From IMG/VR virus record IMGVR_UViG_2645727901_000008: a stretch of 64,000 bases of DNA, one strand, 5' to 3'. Positions 3,856-42,177 of this stretch are shown here, piece by piece (positions within the stretch are counted from its first letter, which is position 1; each line of letters opens with the position of its first letter). This DNA comes from a virus. Lineage: Duplodnaviria; Heunggongvirae; Uroviricota; Caudoviricetes. The translations under genes and the position numbers were made by a program. The notes under the pieces were generated by a model, which worked only from the letters and a program-made list of their open reading frames with translations, had not been told where the DNA came from and searched no databases.

Positions 3856-4623
3856 TCACCCCATAGATATCGAGGTTTCGGTAATAATACGTTTTGCGTC
3901 CAACTCCCATGCTGTGATCACGTCTGCAATCACACTTATCGGCGCTTGTGTGGCATAAATACGCTCTTCTCCAATTGGTGCCGAAACATCCGTAAATCCG
4001 ACTTCTTTGGCATCCTGTATCGAGCAAATCAGCGGGACCGGGACACGAACAAGGTGAGTGGTTGCTTCAAATTGTGTACCTGTCATCAGGCGAAGCCGTG
4101 CGCCCAGCGAATTACACATCAGACTCATGGTCGCTTTATCAGTTGACATTAACGTAACGTCATACGTCAGAATGGCCTGGGTGTATTCCAGTTCTGCTAA
4201 AGGCATTCCGGTATCCGGTTCGCAAAAACTGGCTACTTTTTTGCGGTCAATCTGCTGATCATCGTTGATATAATTGATATCCATAGTGCGTGAGATATTG
4301 ACCAGGGGGAGAGCATCCCGGTTAATGTTCTGGTTTTCAGGTTTTCTCCCTTGCCCGGCATTTGCGCGACGAACTGCTTTAAGAAACTCGATCGCATTGT
4401 CGAAACGGGCCACATAGACACGCTCTGCTGGTGGACGATTCAGGAATGACGCAAAGCGTTTTTCTTCCGGCGCGGGGGCCACCAGTAAGATATCAGAAAA
4501 GATATTGCTGATTAGCGTAGCAAACGCGTTATCCACGTTTTCAAAGCCCGTGGTCTGGAATTTCCCTGTGCGTGAGGTTTGCCATTCACCTGTTCGCGCC
4601 AGGAGGGTTTTATTTGAAGTCAT
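3856..4623 (-). CDS. hypothetical phage morphogenesis protein
   Basis: 255-aa ORF. ATG at 4623 overlapping the upstream stop (ATGA). Confidence 0.45.
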   Translation of the reverse strand: MTSNKTLLARTGEWQTSRTGKFQTTGFENVDNAFATLISNIFSDILLVAPAPEEKRFASFLNRPPAERVYVARFDNAIEFLKAVRRANAGQGRKPENQNINRDALPLVNISRTMDINYINDDQQIDRKKVASFCEPDTGMPLAELEYTQAILTYDVTLMSTDKATMSLMCNSLGARLRLMTGTQFEATTHLVRVPVPLICSIQDAKEVGFTDVSAPIGEERIYATQAPISVIADVITAWELDAKRIITETSISMG

Positions 4624-5411
4624 TCGATCACTCCGTTTTGAGTCGTATCAAAATTCCTGGCAGGTATGCAGTAGTAAAGCGAACCAACATGCTGTGTGCC
4701 GTAGCTAAAAATACGGTGCACGTACCACCAGCGGCGGGCTACGCCGTTTACCATCTCTTCATTCCATTCAAGAATTGATCCGACGGGGACGTTATTTGCT
4801 GCAATACGCAGAATCAGAACATCATCGGTTAAGCCATCCTGCTCACCGTCTGCGTCAATCGCATGGAAAGAGTCACGCCCGTCCGGGTTATCCAGCACAT
4901 AAACGATTTCAGGTTCCTGGTAAGTCAGTTCGCGCTGGTTGTTATCCAGTTCAGTGAATGACTCTTCTCCTGTTTCGTCGCTGACTACCCCATATGTGCC
5001 AACATCTGGTCGATATAAGAGAGCCTGAAACGCGTCTGGGCTGGATTCAATAATCAGCATCCAGTCTGCGCGGATTTGGTCGTTAAAGGCTTTATGCCCG
5101 TTATAGCGTGCTTTTAGCTGTGGAGTTGGTTCTCTGCCAGCCAGGGAAGGTGGAAGTATGGCTATATCTGATTCGGCAGCATCCGGAGTAAGGCCAGCGT
5201 TGCTATCAGCAAAATTATCATGGCTATCAGCTTTGGCGGCGGGTTGCTCTTCCAGAATGCTGAATGAATCCGAACCGGTATTGCCATGTTCCGGCGCGCC
5301 TCCTGCATTCGCTTCAATCGGCGCTGGCGTTTCTCTCTGCGTGCTGTCATGTTCTGACTCATTACTTGCCAGGTTTGCATCGTCAGCAAACCATTCGTCA
5401 AAACGGCCCAT
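4620..5411 (-). CDS. hypothetical protein, first gene of the baseplate-like operon
   Basis: ORF runs 4620..5453. Best RBS (GAGGA-N5-ATG) supports the internal start MGRFDEW at 5411. Confidence 0.4.
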   Translation of the reverse strand: MGRFDEWFADDANLASNESEHDSTQRETPAPIEANAGGAPEHGNTGSDSFSILEEQPAAKADSHDNFADSNAGLTPDAAESDIAILPPSLAGREPTPQLKARYNGHKAFNDQIRADWMLIIESSPDAFQALLYRPDVGTYGVVSDETGEESFTELDNNQRELTYQEPEIVYVLDNPDGRDSFHAIDADGEQDGLTDDVLILRIAANNVPVGSILEWNEEMVNGVARRWWYVHRIFSYGTQHVGSLYYCIPARNFDTTQNGVIE

Positions 5412-5482
5412 AAGCATCCTCAAAGGTCGATTTATCAGGTATCGAGGGTGCATTGTCTGGAGATTGTGATTTCAATTCATAT

Positions 5483-5532
5483 CCCAACATGGGACTAAAG
5501 TGCTTTACATTGTCCCATATTGGGACTACTAT
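5483..5532 (+). promoter_or_regulatory. higBA promoter (TTTACA-N16-TACTAT) overlapped by two palindromic operators, TCCCAACATGGGA and GTCCCATATTGGGAC
   Basis: Read from the sequence. The palindromes flank and overlap the -35/-10 elements, as expected for HigA autoregulation. Confidence 0.55.
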
Positions 5533-5556
5533 ACTTTCAGAGAGAAGGAATCTGTG

Positions 5557-5859
5557 ATGAAAATAATTTCGGTAAAAACACTAAGGGATTTCTGGGCGAA
5601 GAATCCCGATGCAGAACAGCCATTAAAGGCATGGGTTGATGAAGCAACAAAGGCTGACTGGAAAAATCCGGCTGAGATCAAAGAACAGTACCGGACAGCC
5701 AGCATCCTTAAAAACAGGCGCGTGGTGTTCAATATTAAGGGAAATGATTACAGGTTAATTGTCGCAATTGCTTATCAGCGAGGATGGATGTTCGTTAAGT
5801 TTATTGGAACACATAAGGAATACGATGCCATTGAAGCGGATACAATAGAACTGGAGTAA
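5557..5859 (+). CDS. higB: type II toxin HigB (RelE/ParE superfamily mRNA interferase)
   Basis: MKIISVKTLRDFWAKNPD...FNIKGNDYRLIVAIAYQRGWMFVKFIGTHKEYDAI shows HigB-family conservation, including the THKEYD motif. Toxin-first gene order. Confidence 0.8.
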   Translation: MKIISVKTLRDFWAKNPDAEQPLKAWVDEATKADWKNPAEIKEQYRTASILKNRRVVFNIKGNDYRLIVAIAYQRGWMFVKFIGTHKEYDAIEADTIELE

Positions 5860-5862
5860 ATC

Positions 5863-6222
5863 ATGAACATTAAACCTATCCGTACAGAACAAGATTATGA
5901 GGCCGCACTGCGTGCGGTCGAACCGATGTTCGATAACGAACCGGAAATGAACACACCGGAAGGCGATTTCTTTGAAGTAATGTGCCTGCTCATTGAAGAG
6001 TACGAGAAAAAGCATTACCCAATTGAGCCACCATCACCTATTGAAGCCATTAAATTCCGTATGGAACAGCAAGGGCTGACCGTGAAGGATCTGGAACCGG
6101 CGATTGGTAAGTCAAATCGAGTTTACGAAGTGCTTAATGGGACACGAAATTTGACGTTACCTATGATTCGTCGTTTACATGCCCAGTTTGGTATTCCACT
6201 GGAAAGTCTGGTTGGTGTTTAA
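5863..6222 (+). CDS. higA: antitoxin HigA (XRE-family HTH)
   Basis: 119-aa protein starting 4 nt after the higB stop. C-terminal HTH-like region LTVKDLEPAIGKSNRVYEVLNGTRNLT. Confidence 0.75.
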   Translation: MNIKPIRTEQDYEAALRAVEPMFDNEPEMNTPEGDFFEVMCLLIEEYEKKHYPIEPPSPIEAIKFRMEQQGLTVKDLEPAIGKSNRVYEVLNGTRNLTLPMIRRLHAQFGIPLESLVGV

Positions 6223-6284
6223 GTTTGGCGGTCTGGAGGACCGCTTTTTATCTAAAATAAAAATTAGAAGGTTTGATAGCTTGT

Positions 6285-7022
6285 ATGGGCAAAAATTCAT
6301 CAACAGAAAACACATCTACAATTGACTCAATCAAGGGCACAATGGATGAAGCCATAAAAGATAAATTATTTAATAAATTATTTGCATATGTGGTGGTTTC
6401 ATTTTTTGTCGTTAATTGGCAAGAAATACTAATTTTGTTTAAATCTAAATATGATATATACACAACACTGTCTATAGTATGGGTAGGGGATAAATATCAA
6501 ATCCCTTATTTTGGAACCTTCATTGTATCTCCGTTTTTAGCTCACTTTGTGATGCCGTTTATATATGGCACTATTGCGTCCATAGTGATGCCTTATATTA
6601 CTATGCGTATATCAAAACTCACTGGTAGAAATTATGCGCAAATAAGATACATTGACCATGAATTTGACTCAGAAGAGAAAGCAAGAGTAAAGGCGTTGCT
6701 GAGAAACCTAAAGAAAAAAGAGGAAGAGCTTTTAAAATTAGAGGAACAAATAGAAGGTCAACAAAAAATACTGAATACAATCGAAGAAAAGAAGAGAGAG
6801 ATTGAGAGTGCCAGAGTGGCTCTGTATCACGGTATAAAAGTAATTGTTGATATATATAAAGCAAAAGATAAAAGGATTTCCACCAAAGAAGATTTTGCCG
6901 ATTTATTAAAAGCAATTGAAGAAAGTGATTTTTATAAAGACACTGGGTTGTGGGGTATTAATAAATTAATAGATGACGTGGAGACAATATATGAGTCTCA
7001 ATCGACATCAAAGGACAAGTAA
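6285..7022 (+). CDS. AT-rich membrane protein with 2-3 N-terminal TM helices and a long C-terminal coiled coil (unknown function; possible abortive-infection/exclusion protein)
   Basis: Hydrophobic stretches FAYVVVSFFVVNW and FGTFIVSPFLAHFVMPFIYGTIASIVMPYI, then a K/E-rich heptad region. Locally low GC. ATG at 6285. Confidence 0.45.
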   Translation: MGKNSSTENTSTIDSIKGTMDEAIKDKLFNKLFAYVVVSFFVVNWQEILILFKSKYDIYTTLSIVWVGDKYQIPYFGTFIVSPFLAHFVMPFIYGTIASIVMPYITMRISKLTGRNYAQIRYIDHEFDSEEKARVKALLRNLKKKEEELLKLEEQIEGQQKILNTIEEKKREIESARVALYHGIKVIVDIYKAKDKRISTKEDFADLLKAIEESDFYKDTGLWGINKLIDDVETIYESQSTSKDK

Positions 7023-7026
7023 TATA

Positions 7027-7051
7027 AAAGGCGGGATAACCGCCTTTGTTG
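7027..7051. terminator. bidirectional rho-independent terminator between convergent genes
   Basis: AAAGGCGGgataaCCGCCTTT hairpin followed by TTGTT. Confidence 0.6.
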
Positions 7052-7055
7052 TAAA

Positions 7056-8252
7056 TTAAGAACCTTTCTTCACATACTCCATGAACATTTTTTCAGCTTG
7101 TGCAGGTGGTGTTCCTGCCATGACCAGCGCATCAATGAACGCCTGCTTCTTCAGTGCGAACTGATCGGCCAGGCGTTGCTGAAGCTCCTTGTTTTTCTGT
7201 TTCTCACGTTGCAACGCCGCTTCTTTTGCTGCCGCCCGTTTTTTCTGTGCGTCTGACAACTTTCTGGCCTTGGTCAGTTGGTCACGTAGCTTGTCAATCT
7301 TGCCGTTGTCCTTTGCCAGTTTTGTGCTTAAAGCGGCCTGGCGCTTCTGATAGAGCCTCCATTCGCGCTTGGCAGCGTCAACGTTTGTTTTACTGTTGCG
7401 ATTGCGATTAAACTCCCTCTCGTCTTCTTTTGAGAAGTGTTTGGTTGTACGGCGGCGATCGTCACCAAATGCAATTTGCGTTGCGGCCTTTTGTAACGCA
7501 CGAGCAATACTCATTTGCCAACTAGCGGACTGTAACCGCGTCATTGAGTGGATCACGTGTTTACAGGCGACGCCTTGTAGCTTAGGGTTACGAACTTTTG
7601 GATAGGCGTATTCTTTTGGCGGGGCCAGGGCAAAGTTACCCGCAGTAGCGATGTAACGATACCAGTATTGATGACGACCACAGTCACAATCGAAAGACAC
7701 CCGCCCGGCGCACAGTGATTTAGTGATTTTCAGAGCTGATTTATCGTCTTCTGCGATGTCATCGACCATCTGATCCCATTCTTCAAAGCGTATCCGGACG
7801 ATATGGTGCTGGTGGACGGATATATCCGATGCTTCTACGCGGATATGAATCACGTTGTGGCGAAGAGATACGGGTGTAGCTCTTTTGATACCAGATCCGT
7901 CATCCACGGCGTTATTTGCACGCTTAATATCGATTGCCTGGCTGGATGCCACCAGCTGGGCGTATGTGATGCCAGCCGTCTTGCTGTCATATTTTTCGCG
8001 TGTTTTACTCCGTAGCTTTTCGAAACCTTTCAGGTCGTCTCGCGTGAAGAACGTGCCGCCTTTTTTCTTCCCTAACTTGAGAATATCTTCGGCGGATTTG
8101 TTCCTCAGTCTACCTGGCGTCAGCGTCCGGTGAGCTTGTCGGCGCTTACGGGTTTGTTCTTTCCTGATAAGGTCGAATAAACGCGTGAAGTCCTTAGAGG
8201 ACAGGCCGTCAGTGATATAGCGCCCGTCCTGGTTTTTCAGGAAATCAGGCAT
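7056..8252 (-). CDS. SWIM zinc-finger domain protein with a basic coiled-coil C-terminus
   Basis: CxC...CxH pattern (FDCDCGRHQYW...GVACKHVIH). ATG at 8252 with GGAGA RBS. Confidence 0.5.
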   Translation of the reverse strand: MPDFLKNQDGRYITDGLSSKDFTRLFDLIRKEQTRKRRQAHRTLTPGRLRNKSAEDILKLGKKKGGTFFTRDDLKGFEKLRSKTREKYDSKTAGITYAQLVASSQAIDIKRANNAVDDGSGIKRATPVSLRHNVIHIRVEASDISVHQHHIVRIRFEEWDQMVDDIAEDDKSALKITKSLCAGRVSFDCDCGRHQYWYRYIATAGNFALAPPKEYAYPKVRNPKLQGVACKHVIHSMTRLQSASWQMSIARALQKAATQIAFGDDRRRTTKHFSKEDEREFNRNRNSKTNVDAAKREWRLYQKRQAALSTKLAKDNGKIDKLRDQLTKARKLSDAQKKRAAAKEAALQREKQKNKELQQRLADQFALKKQAFIDALVMAGTPPAQAEKMFMEYVKKGS

Positions 8253-8574
8253 TTTCTATCTCCGGTTCCGCGCTCGCGTAATCACGGATCTTGTTCCTCA
8301 GCCATGCCACATCAGGAAGAGTTAACGTGGTCCCGGCGGGCATTTCTTCCATTTCTGACTCATGGCCCACCAGCACCCGGAATACCCAGCGCAAATCTGC
8401 ATTGCCATACGCCCTGTAGGCTGCAAGGTCTGAACGATATACTTCATCAATCTTTATCGTGTACTGGAAATTATCAGAGTGATACTCCGATACCCGCTTA
8501 ATCATTTCCTGGTGAAACAGCGCACGAAAAATATCGTCTTCAATGTACCTATCGTCGAGTCTGCTATAGCCCAT
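8245..8574 (-). CDS. hypothetical protein
   Basis: 109-aa ORF. GAGAGG RBS 8 nt upstream of ATG 8574. Overlaps the downstream gene start by 8 nt. Confidence 0.45.
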   Translation of the reverse strand: MGYSRLDDRYIEDDIFRALFHQEMIKRVSEYHSDNFQYTIKIDEVYRSDLAAYRAYGNADLRWVFRVLVGHESEMEEMPAGTTLTLPDVAWLRNKIRDYASAEPEIENA

Positions 8575-8902: not shown

Positions 8903-9556
8903 TCAAAGTATCACGGTATCTTCATCAACTTCTTTCCCAGCCAGTGACTTTGGCTGGGAGGTGCCTGCTTTAACTTTTTCATGCCCAATAATGGAAAGGA
9001 ACGAAGCGAGTATGCCTGTTTTTTGCTCTTTCTCGACTGTACCGGTCATCTGCTCTACATAATCTGCACTGGCAACGTTGTGGTATACGGTCGCGTAGCA
9101 ACACAGGATCATCAGAATATGCTCCGGCCTGATATCCTGCCAGTTCACCCTGTAGACTTCTTCTCCGTTACCGTTGTATTCGGTATCAACGATAGAGTCG
9201 GGGATTTCGAAAGCACCTTTGTTATTTTGCGGCAGGGATAATAGTTTCTGGAGTTTTAACTCTCTGTATCTTTCCATCCCGACGATGATTGCTGCTCTTC
9301 CATCGGCATGACGGGTCTTGAGAGTCACCTGACTTGCTCCGGTGCCAGCGGAGATCGTTGGCGTAATTTCGTCTACCAGTACCTTAAATTTGCTTTTCCG
9401 CAGGGCTGCTATAGCTGGAGGAATTTTTTGCTTTTGCTCCAATGCTGACGCGGGAAGGGGTTTTACTTCGTTAATAATGAGAGCACCGTCTTTCAGTATT
9501 GCAGTGAGCATTTGAGGCTTGCTGGTGGTCAGGCTGAATATTGCGATCTTTTCCAT
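8903..9556 (-). CDS. hypothetical protein
   Basis: ORF 8903..9598. Strong GGAGGA RBS supports the ATG at 9556 (MEKIAIFSL...). Confidence 0.5.
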   Translation of the reverse strand: MEKIAIFSLTTSKPQMLTAILKDGALIINEVKPLPASALEQKQKIPPAIAALRKSKFKVLVDEITPTISAGTGASQVTLKTRHADGRAAIIVGMERYRELKLQKLLSLPQNNKGAFEIPDSIVDTEYNGNGEEVYRVNWQDIRPEHILMILCCYATVYHNVASADYVEQMTGTVEKEQKTGILASFLSIIGHEKVKAGTSQPKSLAGKEVDEDTVIL

Positions 9557-9583
9557 TGTCCTTCCTCCACGGATGACGGATAC

Positions 9584-9607
9584 AAAAAAAGGCCGCACAT
9601 GGCGGCC
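9584..9607 (-). terminator. rho-independent terminator-like hairpin (GGCCGCCATGTGCGGCC plus TTTTTTTG on minus strand)
   Basis: Read from the sequence. Lies just 5' of the 8903..9556 gene, so its functional role is unclear. Confidence 0.4.
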
Positions 9608-9824
9608 TGCTTTGGCGTTATGACTCCCTACCGCGCTTCGGCTGAAAGTTAATCGTCAAAAGAACCTTCAACGGGAGCCGTTAGCGCGATGGATTATGTG
9701 CAGTTTGTGATTTCCAAAATAGTGTCAACCACTTTTTGTGGATTTTATTTTTTGACCGAAATTTGGCCTAAATCATGTTGATGTAGTTAATTGTTTTTAT
9801 AACATAAAACTTCATTTTGTTTAC

Positions 9825-10949: not shown

Positions 10950-11567
10950 TCATTTTTGTCGGATCTTTTCCAGCATATTTAATTCATTATCACTTTCTGC
11001 TGCTGAGACGGTTGGCCTCACATTTCCGAAATATTTCCTGTGAGACTCATGACTTATGTATTCACCGACAGTTTCATTCTTGAATATACGAATTTGACAT
11101 ATGCGAGATCCAACAATAAGTTCTACAGGGCTATTCCCATGATTAAATAACTCTAAAGATATACAGCCTCTGTACCCTGGTTGTATCATGGTATTTAATG
11201 AAAGACCAAGCCTTGTATAGCTGCTTCTGGACAATACATCAGCGTAGCAATCTGGTGGCAAACAAACATATTCTAATGTTGTTGCCAGTACCACTTGATT
11301 CGGGTAAACAATGAATCTATCCCCAAGATCTCTCCTTGTTTCCTGGAAAAATGTTCTGATTGGTTGATGAGTATCATTGTTTTTTGATGGAATTAACTCT
11401 ATTGACGGCTTCCTTGTCATAATAGACACTAAAAAATCGTAACCAAGTCTAAGGTCTATGGTGAAGTTCCCAATTTGGTTTTTATTTAGAAGAGGTTCAA
11501 TGAACAACGACTCAGGTTCTTCTGATTCATAATATTGCAGCAATTCAGCTTTGCTTAGGAGATTCAT
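10950..11567 (-). CDS. dCTP deaminase (Dcd/dUTPase-fold) family protein with catalytic residues conserved
   Basis: Alignable by eye to E. coli Dcd: IDLRLGYDF ~ [44 protein letters not shown] ~ [49 protein letters not shown] ~ GWSGCIVLEFYNSG (RSS and the catalytic Glu are retained). GGAGTG RBS supports the MNLLSK start at 11567, which overlaps the upstream stop (ATGA). Confidence 0.65.
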   Translation of the reverse strand: [205 protein letters not shown]

Positions 11568-12637
11568 TGTGCACTCCATTTTTCAAGAATCATTACGTTT
11601 CGAATCGATTTTTCAACCAAATCATTTATAGTTTTTTCTATGGCTTCTTGTGACAACCCAGACCATATACCCGTAGGTTTTTCCCATTCAGAGCATAAGT
11701 ACTGCCAGCTGCTGTTAATAAAAGCATGCATTTCATTGTGGTCGCGAATAACAAAAGGACGCACATTATCAAAAGCTGATTTCACATCAAGCAAAGGTGT
11801 CGGCAATGTCAAACAAGGAGAAATAATCTGCCCACCATTATGTAAGGCTGATATCACAGCATTGAACATGCCAACAACTGGATTTTCCACTTTGTTCAAA
11901 AAGTCGCTTACAATTTTAACTCTATCTTCTGTGGATGGGTGAGTATAGCTTGCAGGATGAGAGCCAGCTAATTTGTATAAGAAATCTACCCCACTTTTTC
12001 CAATAAATTGGGCACTAAATAGATCTGCAAAATATTCTCTGCAATGATTTATCCAAATAACATCAGGTAGATTACTCCATTCTGGTCCAGGAAGTGTGCC
12101 TTTGTCCTTGGAACGATAGTTAAGACAGGCAAGCTCAGAAATACCTTTGCTAATATCAACGAAATGTCCCAATTCGTGATATAAAGGTATAGAGCATAAT
12201 GGTCGTCTTCTGTACATTTCAGGTAATGAAATCTGAATTAATTCGACATCGAATTTGACATTTAAAACTTCGTCAAATAAAGAATACAAATTCTTGTTTA
12301 CAGACTTAAAATAAAACCCATGCATATCTGGAGATAGGGCTGTGGTTATAAGTGTTTTTTCACTTATCCATTTTTTACAGGCATCATTTAAGCAATAGAC
12401 AATCTCGTAGGGAATTTTCTTTGTAGTACTGCCAGTGAAAAAATTAACTGCATCGGTGATAAAAAAAGTACAATCCGCAATTATTTTATCAGCAACATTC
12501 ACATGGTTTTCATAGAGCTTATCCACCGCTTCTTGTAGAACAGCAAGATATTCATGCATGTCTTTAGAAAAATAGGGAGATTCTGATATCTCCCTTAGCT
12601 TATTTCGAACTAATGTAAGTTGTGTAAATGCAAGCAT
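11564..12637 (-). CDS. ImmA/IrrE-family (M78) zinc metallopeptidase-like protein with extra N- and C-terminal regions
   Basis: HExxH (LYHELGHFVD) followed about 27 aa later by HCREYFADLFSAQF, resembling the E..AN.FA..LL third-ligand motif of ImmA/IrrE. AT-rich. Coupled to both neighbours (TAATG and ATGA overlaps). Confidence 0.55.
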   Translation of the reverse strand: MLAFTQLTLVRNKLREISESPYFSKDMHEYLAVLQEAVDKLYENHVNVADKIIADCTFFITDAVNFFTGSTTKKIPYEIVYCLNDACKKWISEKTLITTALSPDMHGFYFKSVNKNLYSLFDEVLNVKFDVELIQISLPEMYRRRPLCSIPLYHELGHFVDISKGISELACLNYRSKDKGTLPGPEWSNLPDVIWINHCREYFADLFSAQFIGKSGVDFLYKLAGSHPASYTHPSTEDRVKIVSDFLNKVENPVVGMFNAVISALHNGGQIISPCLTLPTPLLDVKSAFDNVRPFVIRDHNEMHAFINSSWQYLCSEWEKPTGIWSGLSQEAIEKTINDLVEKSIRNVMILEKWSAQ

Positions 12638-12942
12638 TAAATGTACTCTAATACATTCCGGGCCATTACGGGTTCTAACATATCTTCGCTAGTTACTTTG
12701 GTTAGCACCTGGGCGAGCGCCTTAGTGTGGCGTATCTCTACCGCGAGCGAGATGGACTCTCTGTGAGAAGGAATCTGTAATTGATCACCTTTATCTACAC
12801 TTAAGTTTGAGGCTTCTCTGATCACCTCATAAACCCGTAACTTTAACTGCTGTGACACTTCTTGTTGAGATGCTATAAGCTGAAGTACAGTCTTGATCAA
12901 CTTCAAAGAATCAGAAGCTTGCTGAGGAACCGCATAGAGCAT
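12637..12942 (-). CDS. small alpha-helical protein (101 aa), first gene of the peptidase-deaminase operon
   Basis: Strong AAAGGAGGGG RBS before ATG 12942. Stop overlaps the next start. Confidence 0.5.
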   Translation of the reverse strand: MLYAVPQQASDSLKLIKTVLQLIASQQEVSQQLKLRVYEVIREASNLSVDKGDQLQIPSHRESISLAVEIRHTKALAQVLTKVTSEDMLEPVMARNVLEYI

Positions 12943-26921: not shown

Positions 26922-27143
26922 ATGCAATCCATTAACTTCCGTACCGCGCGTGGCAACCTTTCTGAAGTGCTCAACAATGTTGAAGCCGGGGAAGAGGTTG
27001 AAATCACCCGCAGAGGCCGTGAGCCAGCAGTAATTGTCAGCAAGGCTACTTTCGAAGCCTACAAAAAAGCGGCGCTGGATGCTGAATTTGCATCCCTGTT
27101 TGACACCCTGGACTCCACCAACAAGGAACTGGTTAACCGATAA
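26922..27143 (+). CDS. phd: Phd antitoxin (prevents host death)
   Basis: [39 protein letters not shown]... matches P1 Phd essentially throughout. Confidence 0.9.
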
Positions 27144-27523
27144 TGAGGCATATATCACCGGAAGAACTTATTGCGCTTCATGATGCGAATATAAGCCGCT
27201 ACGGCGGCCTGCCGGGAATGTCAGATCCGGGTAGGGCAGAGGCCATTATCGGGAGAGTTCAGGCCAGAGTTGCCTACGACGAGATCACCGACCTTTTCGA
27301 AGTCTCCGCCACCTACCTGGTGGCTACGGCGAGAGGGCATATATTCAATGATGCCAATAAGCGTACCGCGCTAAACAGTGCGCTGCTATTTCTACGCCGT
27401 AACGGTATACAGGTATATGATTCTCCCGTGCTGGTGGAACTTGCGGTGGGGGCCGCAACTGGTGAAATCCCCGTATCTTCAGTAGCGGAAAAACTACGTG
27501 AATTATTTGGTTCCAATATTTGA
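27143..27523 (+). CDS. doc: Doc toxin (Fic-family kinase)
   Basis: [40 protein letters not shown]... matches the P1 Doc family. TAATG coupling to phd. Confidence 0.9.
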
Positions 27524-40853: not shown

Positions 40854-42074
40854 TTATTTCCCATAAAGATCTTCTACGCCCCCATTCTTCTTGTCCCATT
40901 CGTTAGCCCACACCCGGCAGGCATCAATAATTTCTTGACGACGGTCGCCCTGCATAAAGGGGATGCTTTCATGAAAACTACTTGGGATACAGGCCACGCT
41001 GAATACGGTATCAAACGCAGTCTGTTTGATAGCTTCCAACGTCTCTGGGCGCATTTTCAATTCATCGATCGGCGCATCCTTAGAGTCCATAATCCGGCGA
41101 TGCAGGCGCGGGAAATCAGTCTCCAGGTACGCCATAATTTTATCTGCCAGGCATTCGTCTATATCGGTATTCCAGTCCGTTTCGAAGCCGGGCAGGCGAT
41201 AGTAAAGCGGCGTTCCCCATACTGATGGGATCACATCCATCGTCAGCAGGCGGTTGGTTCTAATTTGTTGATGGTAATTAGCCGTCAACAGAGCTTCACC
41301 ACGCTGACCAGTCTCCGCAACCAGACCATGCGGGTACTCATGGATATAGGCAATAGCATCCACCCCGTCATACATGAGCGGGAATGTCTCTGGCCTTTGT
41401 CCCATACCACAAGCGCGGTTCAGATCATGACCAAGCTGTGAGCACTCTCGTTTCAGCGTTTCAATAATGTTCTGCGCTGTTGCTAACTTTTTACGCAGTG
41501 TGACGCCTTCGCCTTGATACTTAATGCATTGCTGATTCAGCTCTGTTAAACGCTCTTTTAGTTCCCGACGCTCTCTTTTCAGCGCACGGTTATCCTTCTC
41601 CGCAACATCCAGTCGTTTTGACAGACTGGCTGGATAGTCTTTTTTGTAACGACTCAAATCGGCTTCTGCGGATTTGCGCAGTGTGTTTGCCTGTTCAAGA
41701 CGCGCTTCCAGATTACCGATCTCACTACGCATATTCGCGGCAAATTGATTAACAGCATTGCCAAGACTTTCAACTGTCGCTGATACGCCTGTGACTTGTG
41801 AAAAACGGATCAAGCCATCATTAACGGCTTGTTGATATCCCTCAAACTGATCCACCAGCTTGTTGTAATCAACCGTCCCTTCCTCAAGTAGCTGGTTGAT
41901 CTCCGCGACCAGGTTATCAGTAGTGGCAATGACGCTCTCATGTAACCGTCTGGACAGGTCATCCCCCGGATTCCGCTTTTGAATAAGGGCGATCTGTGTC
42001 CGCAGCGTTTCAATCGCGGCTGAGATGATTTCCAGATTAGAAGTATCAGTTTGTTGACTCATTGCAGTTCCCAT
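40854..42074 (-). CDS. hypothetical protein with an N-terminal long coiled coil plus a C-terminal globular domain
   Basis: ORF 40854..42146. First in-frame ATG at 42074 (MGTAMSQQ...). Confidence 0.45.
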   Translation of the reverse strand: MGTAMSQQTDTSNLEIISAAIETLRTQIALIQKRNPGDDLSRRLHESVIATTDNLVAEINQLLEEGTVDYNKLVDQFEGYQQAVNDGLIRFSQVTGVSATVESLGNAVNQFAANMRSEIGNLEARLEQANTLRKSAEADLSRYKKDYPASLSKRLDVAEKDNRALKRERRELKERLTELNQQCIKYQGEGVTLRKKLATAQNIIETLKRECSQLGHDLNRACGMGQRPETFPLMYDGVDAIAYIHEYPHGLVAETGQRGEALLTANYHQQIRTNRLLTMDVIPSVWGTPLYYRLPGFETDWNTDIDECLADKIMAYLETDFPRLHRRIMDSKDAPIDELKMRPETLEAIKQTAFDTVFSVACIPSSFHESIPFMQGDRRQEIIDACRVWANEWDKKNGGVEDLYGK

Positions 42075-42087
42075 TGTTTTTTGCAAG

Positions 42088-42103
42088 ATTAGTTTTCTAA
42101 CAT
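42088..42103. promoter_or_regulatory. motif ATTAGTTTTCTAACAT about 14 nt upstream of the 42074 start codon
   Basis: Motif family member. Confidence 0.45.
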
Positions 42104-42177
42104 ATTTTATTAGTATGAGAACAAGAGCGAAAGATGTGATAAACAAAAAACCCGCTAATCGGCGGGTTTTTGAGCGG

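Follow-up and report, generated by a model that had tools for sequence, protein, structure and literature searches.

A toxin-antitoxin operon and a predicted inner-membrane protein gene as apparently separate modules in the tail-gene cluster of a D6-like phage-plasmid

Described relatives and the locus

The nearest solved structures for the toxin-antitoxin (TA) pair considered here are those of HigB/HigA (YgjN-YgjM) from Escherichia coli K-12 (5IFG, 5YCL, and 6KML; E about 1e-7 to 1e-8), in which HigB cleaves translated mRNA and HigA neutralizes HigB and represses the promoter via inverted repeats (PMC2814082; PMC11980606). Of the relatives of this HigB subfamily that have been studied by experiment, the closest is component A of the PD-lambda-2 system, which neutralizes the toxic component B (Vassallo et al. 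2022, PMC9519451). Here, we analyze an island in a 64,000-nucleotide stretch of viral DNA (IMG/VR record IMGVR_UViG_2645727901_000008; hereafter, the window, meaning the whole stretch) that carries a pair of this kind, higBA, followed by a third gene, called g3 in this work, for an inner-membrane protein by prediction. The window represents a D6-like, P1-related phage-plasmid, its flanking genes being the D6 homologs of the P1 tail and baseplate genes 5, 6, 24, 7, 25, and 26. We put at about 0.5 the probability that a single insertion site in this tail cluster holds two independent accessory modules, namely, higBA and a candidate gene for exclusion or abortive infection (Abi), g3. An original prediction for this region, made from the sequence alone, had recognized the accessory island and the higB-higA pair, both of which our searches bear out, but its wording suggested one three-gene unit, whereas the comparative data point to two. 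It had also likened the product of the third gene to exclusion or Abi proteins, a role that we keep as a candidate from context.

On sequence comparison, higBA is predicted to be a canonical type II TA operon of the E. coli K-12 HigBA type, and an ordinary one. Like its K-12 counterpart, it has a PF09907 toxin in a toxin-first operon (here with a 3-bp gap between the genes and a single promoter-like site upstream), an antitoxin that has its toxin-binding part at the N terminus and an XRE helix-turn-helix at the C terminus, a promoter with inverted repeats (a likeness in presence), and the T-H-x-x-Y-D and R66 signature of the toxin. It differs from K-12 HigBA, to which it is ∼28% identical, in the length of HigA (119 amino acids versus 138) and in its setting, since the K-12 operon is chromosomal, whereas the window operon lies beside tail genes on a phage-plasmid. 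HigB matches the Pfam family HigB_toxin over the whole profile (positions 1 to 74 of 74; E 3e-34; 117.4 bits versus a cut-off of 27) and the structures 5IFG_A/5YCL_B at E 1e-7, and its gene is preceded by a Shine-Dalgarno sequence, AAGGA, at 5545 to 5549. The THKEYD motif already pointed out in the original prediction occupies residues 85 to 90, and K52, G62, R66, T85, H86, Y89, and D90, which are invariant in comparison with K-12 HigB and with two homologs of 21 to 26% identity, presumably have a catalytic role. HigA carries an HTH_3 domain (residues 63 to 115; 24.1 bits versus a cut-off of 23), aligns with 5IFG_B over residues 6 to 112 (E 2.8e-8), and belongs to a family of 119-amino-acid stand-alone antitoxins that comprises more than 7,900 clusters at E 1e-10 or better.

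The site TTTACA-17-TACTAT is the sole σ70-like site on the plus strand upstream of higB. Because such sites are not more frequent in the region than expected by chance, its assignment as the higBA promoter rests on its position and on the operators. Both palindromes that had been described as overlapping the promoter are present, but only O2 lies inside it, in the spacer; O1 is located 10 bp upstream of the −35 element and thus outside the core promoter. Their centers are 31 bp apart, or about three helical turns. The motif TCCCANNNTGGGA has two copies in the window, both of them here, against a chance expectation of 0.07, and none of 100 shuffled sequences contained two or more. Among close relatives, substitutions within the palindromes hit the central base only, and an 87%-identical higBA that neighbors c1 and an integrase on a different P1-like plasmid retains the TCCCA/TGGGA arms at the same spacing, with variable spacers and flanks. 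The motif is, moreover, confined to loci with a PF09907 higB of the window type. This conservation lends good comparative support to the two palindromes as putative operators and makes them candidate HigA sites.

Family membership and the conserved operators together suggest how the operon would work. HigB would act as a ribosome-dependent mRNA endonuclease, the N-terminal part of HigA would bind HigB, and a HigA dimer would bind both TCCCA-N3-TGGGA operators through its helix-turn-helix. With O1 and O2 on the same face of the DNA and O2 in the promoter spacer, this binding would result in conditional self-repression of the operon, and on a low-copy plasmid prophage, higBA could then mediate post-segregational killing beside the phd-doc module that the element also carries. 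The novelty of the higBA part is limited to showing operator conservation in a clean natural example.

Compared with PD-lambda-2, HigB matches component A end to end (PDLC03979, PADLOC PD-Lambda-2_A; E 1e-41; positions 1 to 96 of 97), and HigA matches the first part of the component B profile (positions 1 to 119 of 402; E 7e-43). However, component B of that system has ∼400 amino acids and a C-terminal ImmA/IrrE-type peptidase domain, which is missing from the window HigA in Pfam, and component C, a P4 antitoxin-like protein required for defense, is not matched by g3 in PADLOC at E up to 1. Since the peptidase domain and component C are both missing, we ruled out higBA as a PD-lambda-2 system.

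The island as a whole can be set beside orf70 to orf73 of D6 (MF356679), which occupy the same site between the gene 7 and gene 25 homologs. D6 orf72 is 97.5% identical to the window HigA, and orf73 belongs to the same membrane-protein family as g3, although the two are only 38% identical. The main difference is that, in D6, a PF05015 HigB-like toxin with its own HigA replaces the window higB and its operators, leaving orf72 as an orphan antitoxin gene. For the third gene, the described systems of interest are moron-type inner-membrane exclusion or Abi proteins, such as HK97 gp15, P22 SieA/SieB, lambda RexB, and T4 Imm. Moron genes for exclusion or Abi are nonessential, low-GC genes of temperate phages, often found in late or tail regions and flanked by terminators. 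The product of g3 resembles these proteins in being a small inner-membrane protein from an accessory gene; unlike g3, they are without a long cytoplasmic coiled coil and C-domain, and no similarity of g3 to exclusion or Abi proteins was detected by sequence, profile, or fold (Pfam, PADLOC, PHROGs, and Foldseek).

The insertion site and its modules

The P1 genes 26-25-7-24-6-5 form one late operon, with 3 bp between genes 25 and 7. A 1.6-kb island lies exactly between the homologs of these two genes in the window, on the strand opposite to the tail genes, and the same is true of D6-like plasmids. The 1.7-kb region containing it has matches in 123 plasmids of Escherichia, Salmonella, and Shigella, nearly all of them nonmobilizable and ∼90 kb in size, and D6 is its sole match among phages. 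At this fixed site, the content of the island is polymorphic: one element (L004 in our numbering of comparison loci) has higBA only, and others have g3 with varied partners. The conserved backbone on the left side resumes only at ∼5471, so that each TA cassette brings a different sequence upstream of gene 7.

A comparison of 45 loci (three distant g3 members on short contigs gave no neighborhood) resolved the D6-like site into a mosaic of slots, with a toxin in slot A, the 119-amino-acid HigA in slot B, and g3 in slot C. Slot A holds either the window-type higB and the operators or, in their place, a HigB-like toxin of PF05015 accompanied by a HigA of its own. The latter arrangement, in which a PF05015 RelE/HigA pair lies upstream of g3, was found in 25 loci, and the 119-amino-acid HigA there is an orphan, truncated to 66 to 75 amino acids or split in 15 loci and intact in 10; g3 is full length in all 15. 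Elsewhere, the partners of g3 are different again: its upstream neighbor is TacA/GNAT toxin in phage-plasmids of the Citrobacter type and umuDC in an element of Klebsiella grimontii, and P2-like prophages have g3 without a partner, on the opposite strand between gpV and gpS. The reverse case, higBA lacking g3, was seen in L004 and L016, the latter being the P1-like plasmid locus described above. Finally, dS, the synonymous divergence, is 0.17 to 0.35 for higA and up to 2.1 for g3, which places recombination breakpoints between the two genes. Partner swapping, the decay of orphan HigA beside an intact g3, and a hairpin between the genes thus argue that g3 and higBA are two independent modules. 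Judged from these comparisons, g3 appears to be an autonomous module, separate from higBA and not a third TA component.

That hairpin, at 6227 to 6245 and followed by a T-run, is a feature that the original prediction had left out. The T-run is variable or missing in other alleles, so read-through from higBA is possible. On the other side, g3 ends, as predicted, at a bidirectional terminator, which folds on both strands with −15.4 and −11.7 kcal/mol (z −4.9 and −3.9). L004, which is without g3, has a single hybrid hairpin at 4825 to 4850 in which the left arm of the 6227-to-6245 hairpin is joined to the sequence following 7047. This suggests the outline of a 0.8-kb g3 cassette that is gained and lost by recombination at two related GC-rich hairpins.

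The orphan 119-amino-acid HigA looks like a decaying remnant of TA cassette replacement. Such orphans were recorded at L002 (4943 to 5302; D6 orf72), L025 to L033, L039, L012 to L015, and L021, on elements without the operator, and they could act as transient anti-addiction factors against relatives with the window-type higB. The locus thereby records the replacement of a TA cassette that leaves a decaying orphan antitoxin, an instructive case for considering how related plasmids compete.

Relatives of g3 occupy accessory slots in other phage-plasmids, in P2-like prophages, and in integrative islands, and several neighborhoods hold further genes. L012 and L014 have an extra gene after g3 (6823 to 7311), flagged as YjaZ family in precomputed data and unconfirmed by a Pfam scan, and both (9157 to 9728), as well as L021 at its own coordinates, have a further PF05015 toxin/helix-turn-helix pair between gene 26 and the mat homolog. 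The K. grimontii locus is chromosomal (L005, 191 to 8345); its umuDC-like genes are followed by g3 and then by homologs of gene 25, split in two reading frames, and gene 26, with a Cap4 nuclease gene and hicAB nearby. The locus has the appearance of a P1/D6-type prophage that has decayed and become a defense-like islet. In L055 (6309 to 7732), 12 bp separate a remote member of the g3 family (profile E 4e-7) from an upstream DUF4145 gene with a match to PD-T7-4, a single-gene defense system (E 5e-13); both are part of an island with two serine recombinases.

The g3 family and its possible role

As had been noted, g3 is strongly AT rich, with a GC content of 32.4% (29.7% at third codon positions) compared with 47.5% in the whole window and 50% in the tail genes on either side. 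Its start codon at 6285 is backed by a conserved N terminus in homologs. Of the two to three transmembrane (TM) helices first proposed, hydropathy shows two, at residues ∼32 to 52 and ∼76 to 106, with positive charges following the second, which predicts that both termini are cytoplasmic. An AlphaFold2 model based on an alignment of 62 sequences reached a mean predicted local distance difference test score (pLDDT) of 88, after a poor first model from 14 sequences (pLDDT 65). The model consists of an amphipathic helix (residues 10 to 28), TM1, a short helix in the periplasmic loop (58 to 67), an unbroken helix (83 to 193) that combines TM2 with a cytoplasmic coiled coil, and a three-helix C-domain (201 to 242). 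The coiled coil of the original prediction is therefore present, but it extends ∼85 residues beyond TM2 and not ∼120.

A word-based search with g3 found 20 clusters, all from Enterobacteriaceae, and a profile search of 1.8 billion representatives found 79 at E 0.001 or better, which have a common N-terminal signature (N44, W45, S54, P91, and P103) and little else. The protein matches phrog_8191, of unknown function, at E 1.5e-112; 61 of 62 family members match it too, and most also match phrogs 4780, 13369, 35327, and 22645. None of the PHROGs matched by more than two of the 62 (these five and 24478) has a known function. The sole Pfam match of g3 is below threshold (DUF6947; 17.5 bits versus a cut-off of 27), PADLOC gave no match at E up to 1, and the NCBIfam and PDB sequence searches gave subthreshold or coiled-coil matches at most; the same library searches with the 62 family members returned coiled-coil noise alone, for example, LmuB and JetC. 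Foldseek found no hit for the model at E 0.001 or better in the PDB and BFVD, and a genome-contig scan with the close g3 alignment yielded no confirmed relative.

By tblastn, g3 is present in 156 plasmids, ∼98 of them from Escherichia, Salmonella, and Shigella, compared with 115 plasmids that carry gene 25 at 90% identity or more, and among phages in D6 only. About 55 large Klebsiella plasmids have a g3-like sequence (e.g., NZ_CP137420), and many of these matches cover residues 15 to 130 only, a further piece being found at another place in the record; this points to copies that are split or truncated. The family is uncharacterized and has the marks of a moron, that is, presence/absence polymorphism at a fixed site, deviant base composition, and its own terminator.

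The alleles of g3 are 37 to 100% identical to each other; the backbones around them are 95 to 100% identical in genes 24, 25, and 26. In the same element pairs, dS is 0.4 to 2.1 for g3 versus 0 to 0.13 for these genes. The ratio of nonsynonymous to synonymous divergence (dN/dS) is 0.16 to 0.5 in both halves of the gene, and alleles of 35 to 94% identity have 41 invariant columns; by these sequence measures, g3 appears to be under purifying selection. The low dN/dS, together with a dS far above that of the backbone, argues that the alleles are old, functional, and exchanged by recombination and are not evolving fast in place; for the same two reasons, we rejected positive selection as the source of their diversity. 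Across alleles, the membrane module is 50 to 97% identical, and the coiled coil plus C-domain is 13 to 96% identical, with a low end of 13 to 18%. Some alleles are mosaics, such as P0004, whose C-domain is 96% and whose N terminus is 52% identical.

From context alone, the most likely role of g3 would be to guard the lysogen from other phages, through superinfection exclusion or Abi. A role in such conflict is suggested by slots that g3 has in common with swappable TA modules, by the PD-T7-4-like neighbor of the remote family member, by the Cap4 and HicAB neighbors in K. grimontii, and by the occurrence of g3 in P2 tail-gene hotspots, which are known carriers of defense systems (PMC13586616). 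We picture g3 as an inner-membrane protein that spans the membrane twice and has its N and C termini in the cytoplasm, encoded by a self-contained cassette between terminator hairpins, whose coiled-coil stalk probably drives oligomerization. Expressed in the lysogen, it would recognize something phage specific through its variable cytoplasmic end, which would provide specificity, and the conserved membrane part would then alter the membrane or block a membrane step.

Several points weigh against this picture. Neither homology nor fold relates g3 to a characterized exclusion, Abi, holin, or defense protein in Pfam, PADLOC, PHROGs, the PDB, or BFVD. The 39 bp upstream of g3 (6246 to 6284) contain no σ70-like site of its own; a −10-like TAAAAT at 6253 to 6258, which keeps its position from allele to allele, lacks a −35 element, and expression of g3 may depend on read-through from higBA. 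The variable part would be cytoplasmic according to the model, which would agree with the sensing of an intracellular phage product but not with the classical mechanism of blocking DNA entry from the periplasmic side. The Citrobacter-type lineage has g3 codirectional with the structural genes, where a role in the phage cycle would fit as well. As for the other module, the toxicity of HigB should not be assumed, since the toxic member of PD-lambda-2 is the second component, and the HigB-like protein neutralizes it.

A more far-reaching version of the exclusion or Abi reading, which we put forward only tentatively, would make g3 a new, widespread single-gene antiphage family (five PHROGs and at least 79 clusters at 50% identity). 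Its members would form oligomeric two-TM membrane pores with a hypervariable cytoplasmic stalk and C-domain as the phage-specific trigger, and their alleles would be traded as immune specificities by phage-plasmids and P2-like prophages at hotspots that also house swappable TA modules. The pore idea draws on the order of the elements (TM1, short helix, TM2, and cytoplasmic bundle), which two-TM cation channels have as well. A published survey found almost no recognized defense systems in D6-like phage-plasmids, most of which keep one g3 allele in a recombination hotspot. If g3 is a defense or exclusion factor, it would fill this gap, and it would be a compact single-gene modular system, with a conserved effector and a swappable specificity, that is easily tested by domain swaps.

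It seems to us unlikely that g3 instead serves the phage's own cycle, be it in lysis timing (as a holin, an antiholin, or a spanin-like protein), DNA injection, or virion assembly at the membrane. The gene always lies in or beside tail and baseplate gene clusters, is present in most D6-like elements, and runs with the structural genes in the Citrobacter-type lineage, and one distant member of the 62 weakly matches an Rz-like spanin PHROG (E 8e-5). However, conservation in related phages as part of the virion or the lysis machinery, which the original prediction had named as a possible refutation, was not found: P1, P7, SJ46, and RCS47, relatives with the same tail genes, lack g3, as do some D6-like plasmids (L004). 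The gene is located outside any lysis cassette, between tail genes, where D6-like elements have it opposite to the late operon and insulated by terminators, and the window protein has no holin or spanin family match in Pfam or PHROGs. Further, the swapping of alleles between near-identical backbones would be atypical for a component that has to fit conserved partners.

We consider similarly improbable a lysogenic-conversion function unrelated to phages, or one in the plasmid lifestyle, such as envelope or ion physiology or the tethering of, or competition with, related plasmids. A low-GC accessory gene in mobile elements would suit such a function, and the literature ties D6-like plasmids to particular pathogenic lineages. 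The top Foldseek hits of the model in the PDB are the pore domains of two-TM cation channels with a C-terminal coiled coil (NaK and the NavSulP chimera 3VOU), which have the same order of elements, with TM1, a short helix, and TM2 running into a long cytoplasmic helix; the match is not significant (E 0.65, probability 0.33, TM-score 0.17 to 0.26) and is a lead only, and no selectivity-filter motif is conserved across the g3 family. Yet nothing speaks specifically for this explanation, the neighbors of g3 are TA and defense-like genes and not metabolic or virulence genes, and a high diversity of alleles that is limited to the cytoplasmic part is seen more typically in conflict systems.

Could the three genes form one tripartite system after all, in the manner of PD-lambda-2 or of toxin-antitoxin-chaperone systems, with g3 as a sensor or effector coupled to HigBA? 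The order PF09907 HigB-HigA-g3 recurs in three deeply diverged versions, namely, the window, L043 (25, 29, and 40% identity for the three proteins), and L044 (22, 33, and 25%), the last from a different phage-plasmid lineage. The likeness of HigB to component A and of HigA to the N-terminal part of component B of the three-gene PD-lambda-2, and the missing g3 promoter, point the same way. Set against this are the four other upstream partners of g3, its occurrence alone and that of higBA without it, the RelE-type loci with a decaying leftover HigA and an intact g3, and the breakpoints and hairpin between higA and g3. HigA has no peptidase domain, g3 does not match component C, and g3 has no SecB or other Pfam domain that would make it the third gene of a toxin-antitoxin-chaperone system. 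We consider the tripartite reading very improbable and rejected it on the partner-swapping and orphan-decay data, despite the recurring gene order.

That the third reading frame is decaying or spurious within AT-rich spacer DNA, as its low GC content, the lack of a Pfam domain, and a few frameshifted or truncated copies (L022, L037, and Klebsiella plasmids) might suggest, is effectively refuted by its integrity in nearly all loci, its dN/dS of 0.16 to 0.5, its 41 invariant columns, its 79 representative clusters, and its confident model (mean pLDDT 88).

The element and neighboring features

The features of the locus are collected in Table 1. Since the island and the bidirectional terminator split the P1-type operon, genes 7-24-6-5 need a new promoter. 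We expected it in the 145-bp divergent region (5411 to 5556) that also holds the higBA promoter and operators, but none could be assigned there in comparison with P1 (L056, 3501 to 5450). Among RefSeq relatives, the gene 7 homolog starts ∼14 codons further in. An Rfam scan of positions 4500 to 8500 gave no match.

Table 1. Coordinates of the features in the 64,000-nucleotide window
Feature	Position	Strand	Evidence or remark
P1 tail gene 7 homolog (left flank)	4620..5453	−	98-100% identity to D6 orf69 (annotated 'similar to P1 gene 7')
Operator O1 (putative)	5482..5494	.	Palindrome TCCCA-ACA-TGGGA, 5+3+5; 10 bp upstream of −35
Promoter-like site of higBA	5504..5532	+	TTTACA-17-TACTAT; σ70-like, 9/12 matches
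Operator O2 (putative)	5512..5526	.	Palindrome GTCCCA-TAT-TGGGAC, 6+3+6; fills −35/−10 spacer
higB, RelE-fold toxin of the PF09907 (E. coli K-12 YgjN) family	5557..5859	+	100 amino acids; Pfam HigB_toxin
higA, antitoxin/autorepressor (predicted)	5863..6222	+	119 amino acids; N-terminal toxin-binding part, C-terminal XRE helix-turn-helix
Terminator-like hairpin, left border of g3 cassette	6227..6251	+	GGCGGTC-TGGAG-GACCGC + TTTTTAT; hairpin 6227-6245, −12 kcal/mol, z −2.8
g3, inner-membrane protein (predicted)	6285..7022	+	245 amino acids; hydropathy, AlphaFold2, phrog_8191
Bidirectional intrinsic terminator, common to g3 (+) and gene 25 (−); right border of g3 cassette	7027..7047	.	Folds on both strands
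P1 tail gene 25 homolog (right flank)	7056..8252	−	98% identity to D6, 57% to P1 gp25
phd	26922-27143	+	PhdYeFM_antitox, 49.8 bits versus cut-off of 29.8
doc	27143-27523	+	Fic/DOC, 37.6 bits versus cut-off of 24

The phd-doc pair that had been reported is indeed present. Its genes overlap by one base at 27143, with the antitoxin first, which is the layout of the P1 addiction module, and the element carries two addiction modules, higBA and phd-doc.

Two minus-strand regions of the window may be mentioned in addition. A 430-amino-acid coiled-coil protein is encoded at 40854 to 42146, with weak DivIVA, ERM, and JetC-type coiled-coil matches only. An AT-rich three-gene cluster (32 to 42% GC) lies at 10950 to 12942 and encodes, next to proteins of 357 and 101 amino acids without a Pfam or PADLOC match, a 209-amino-acid dCTP deaminase-like protein (Pfam DCD, E 1e-30).

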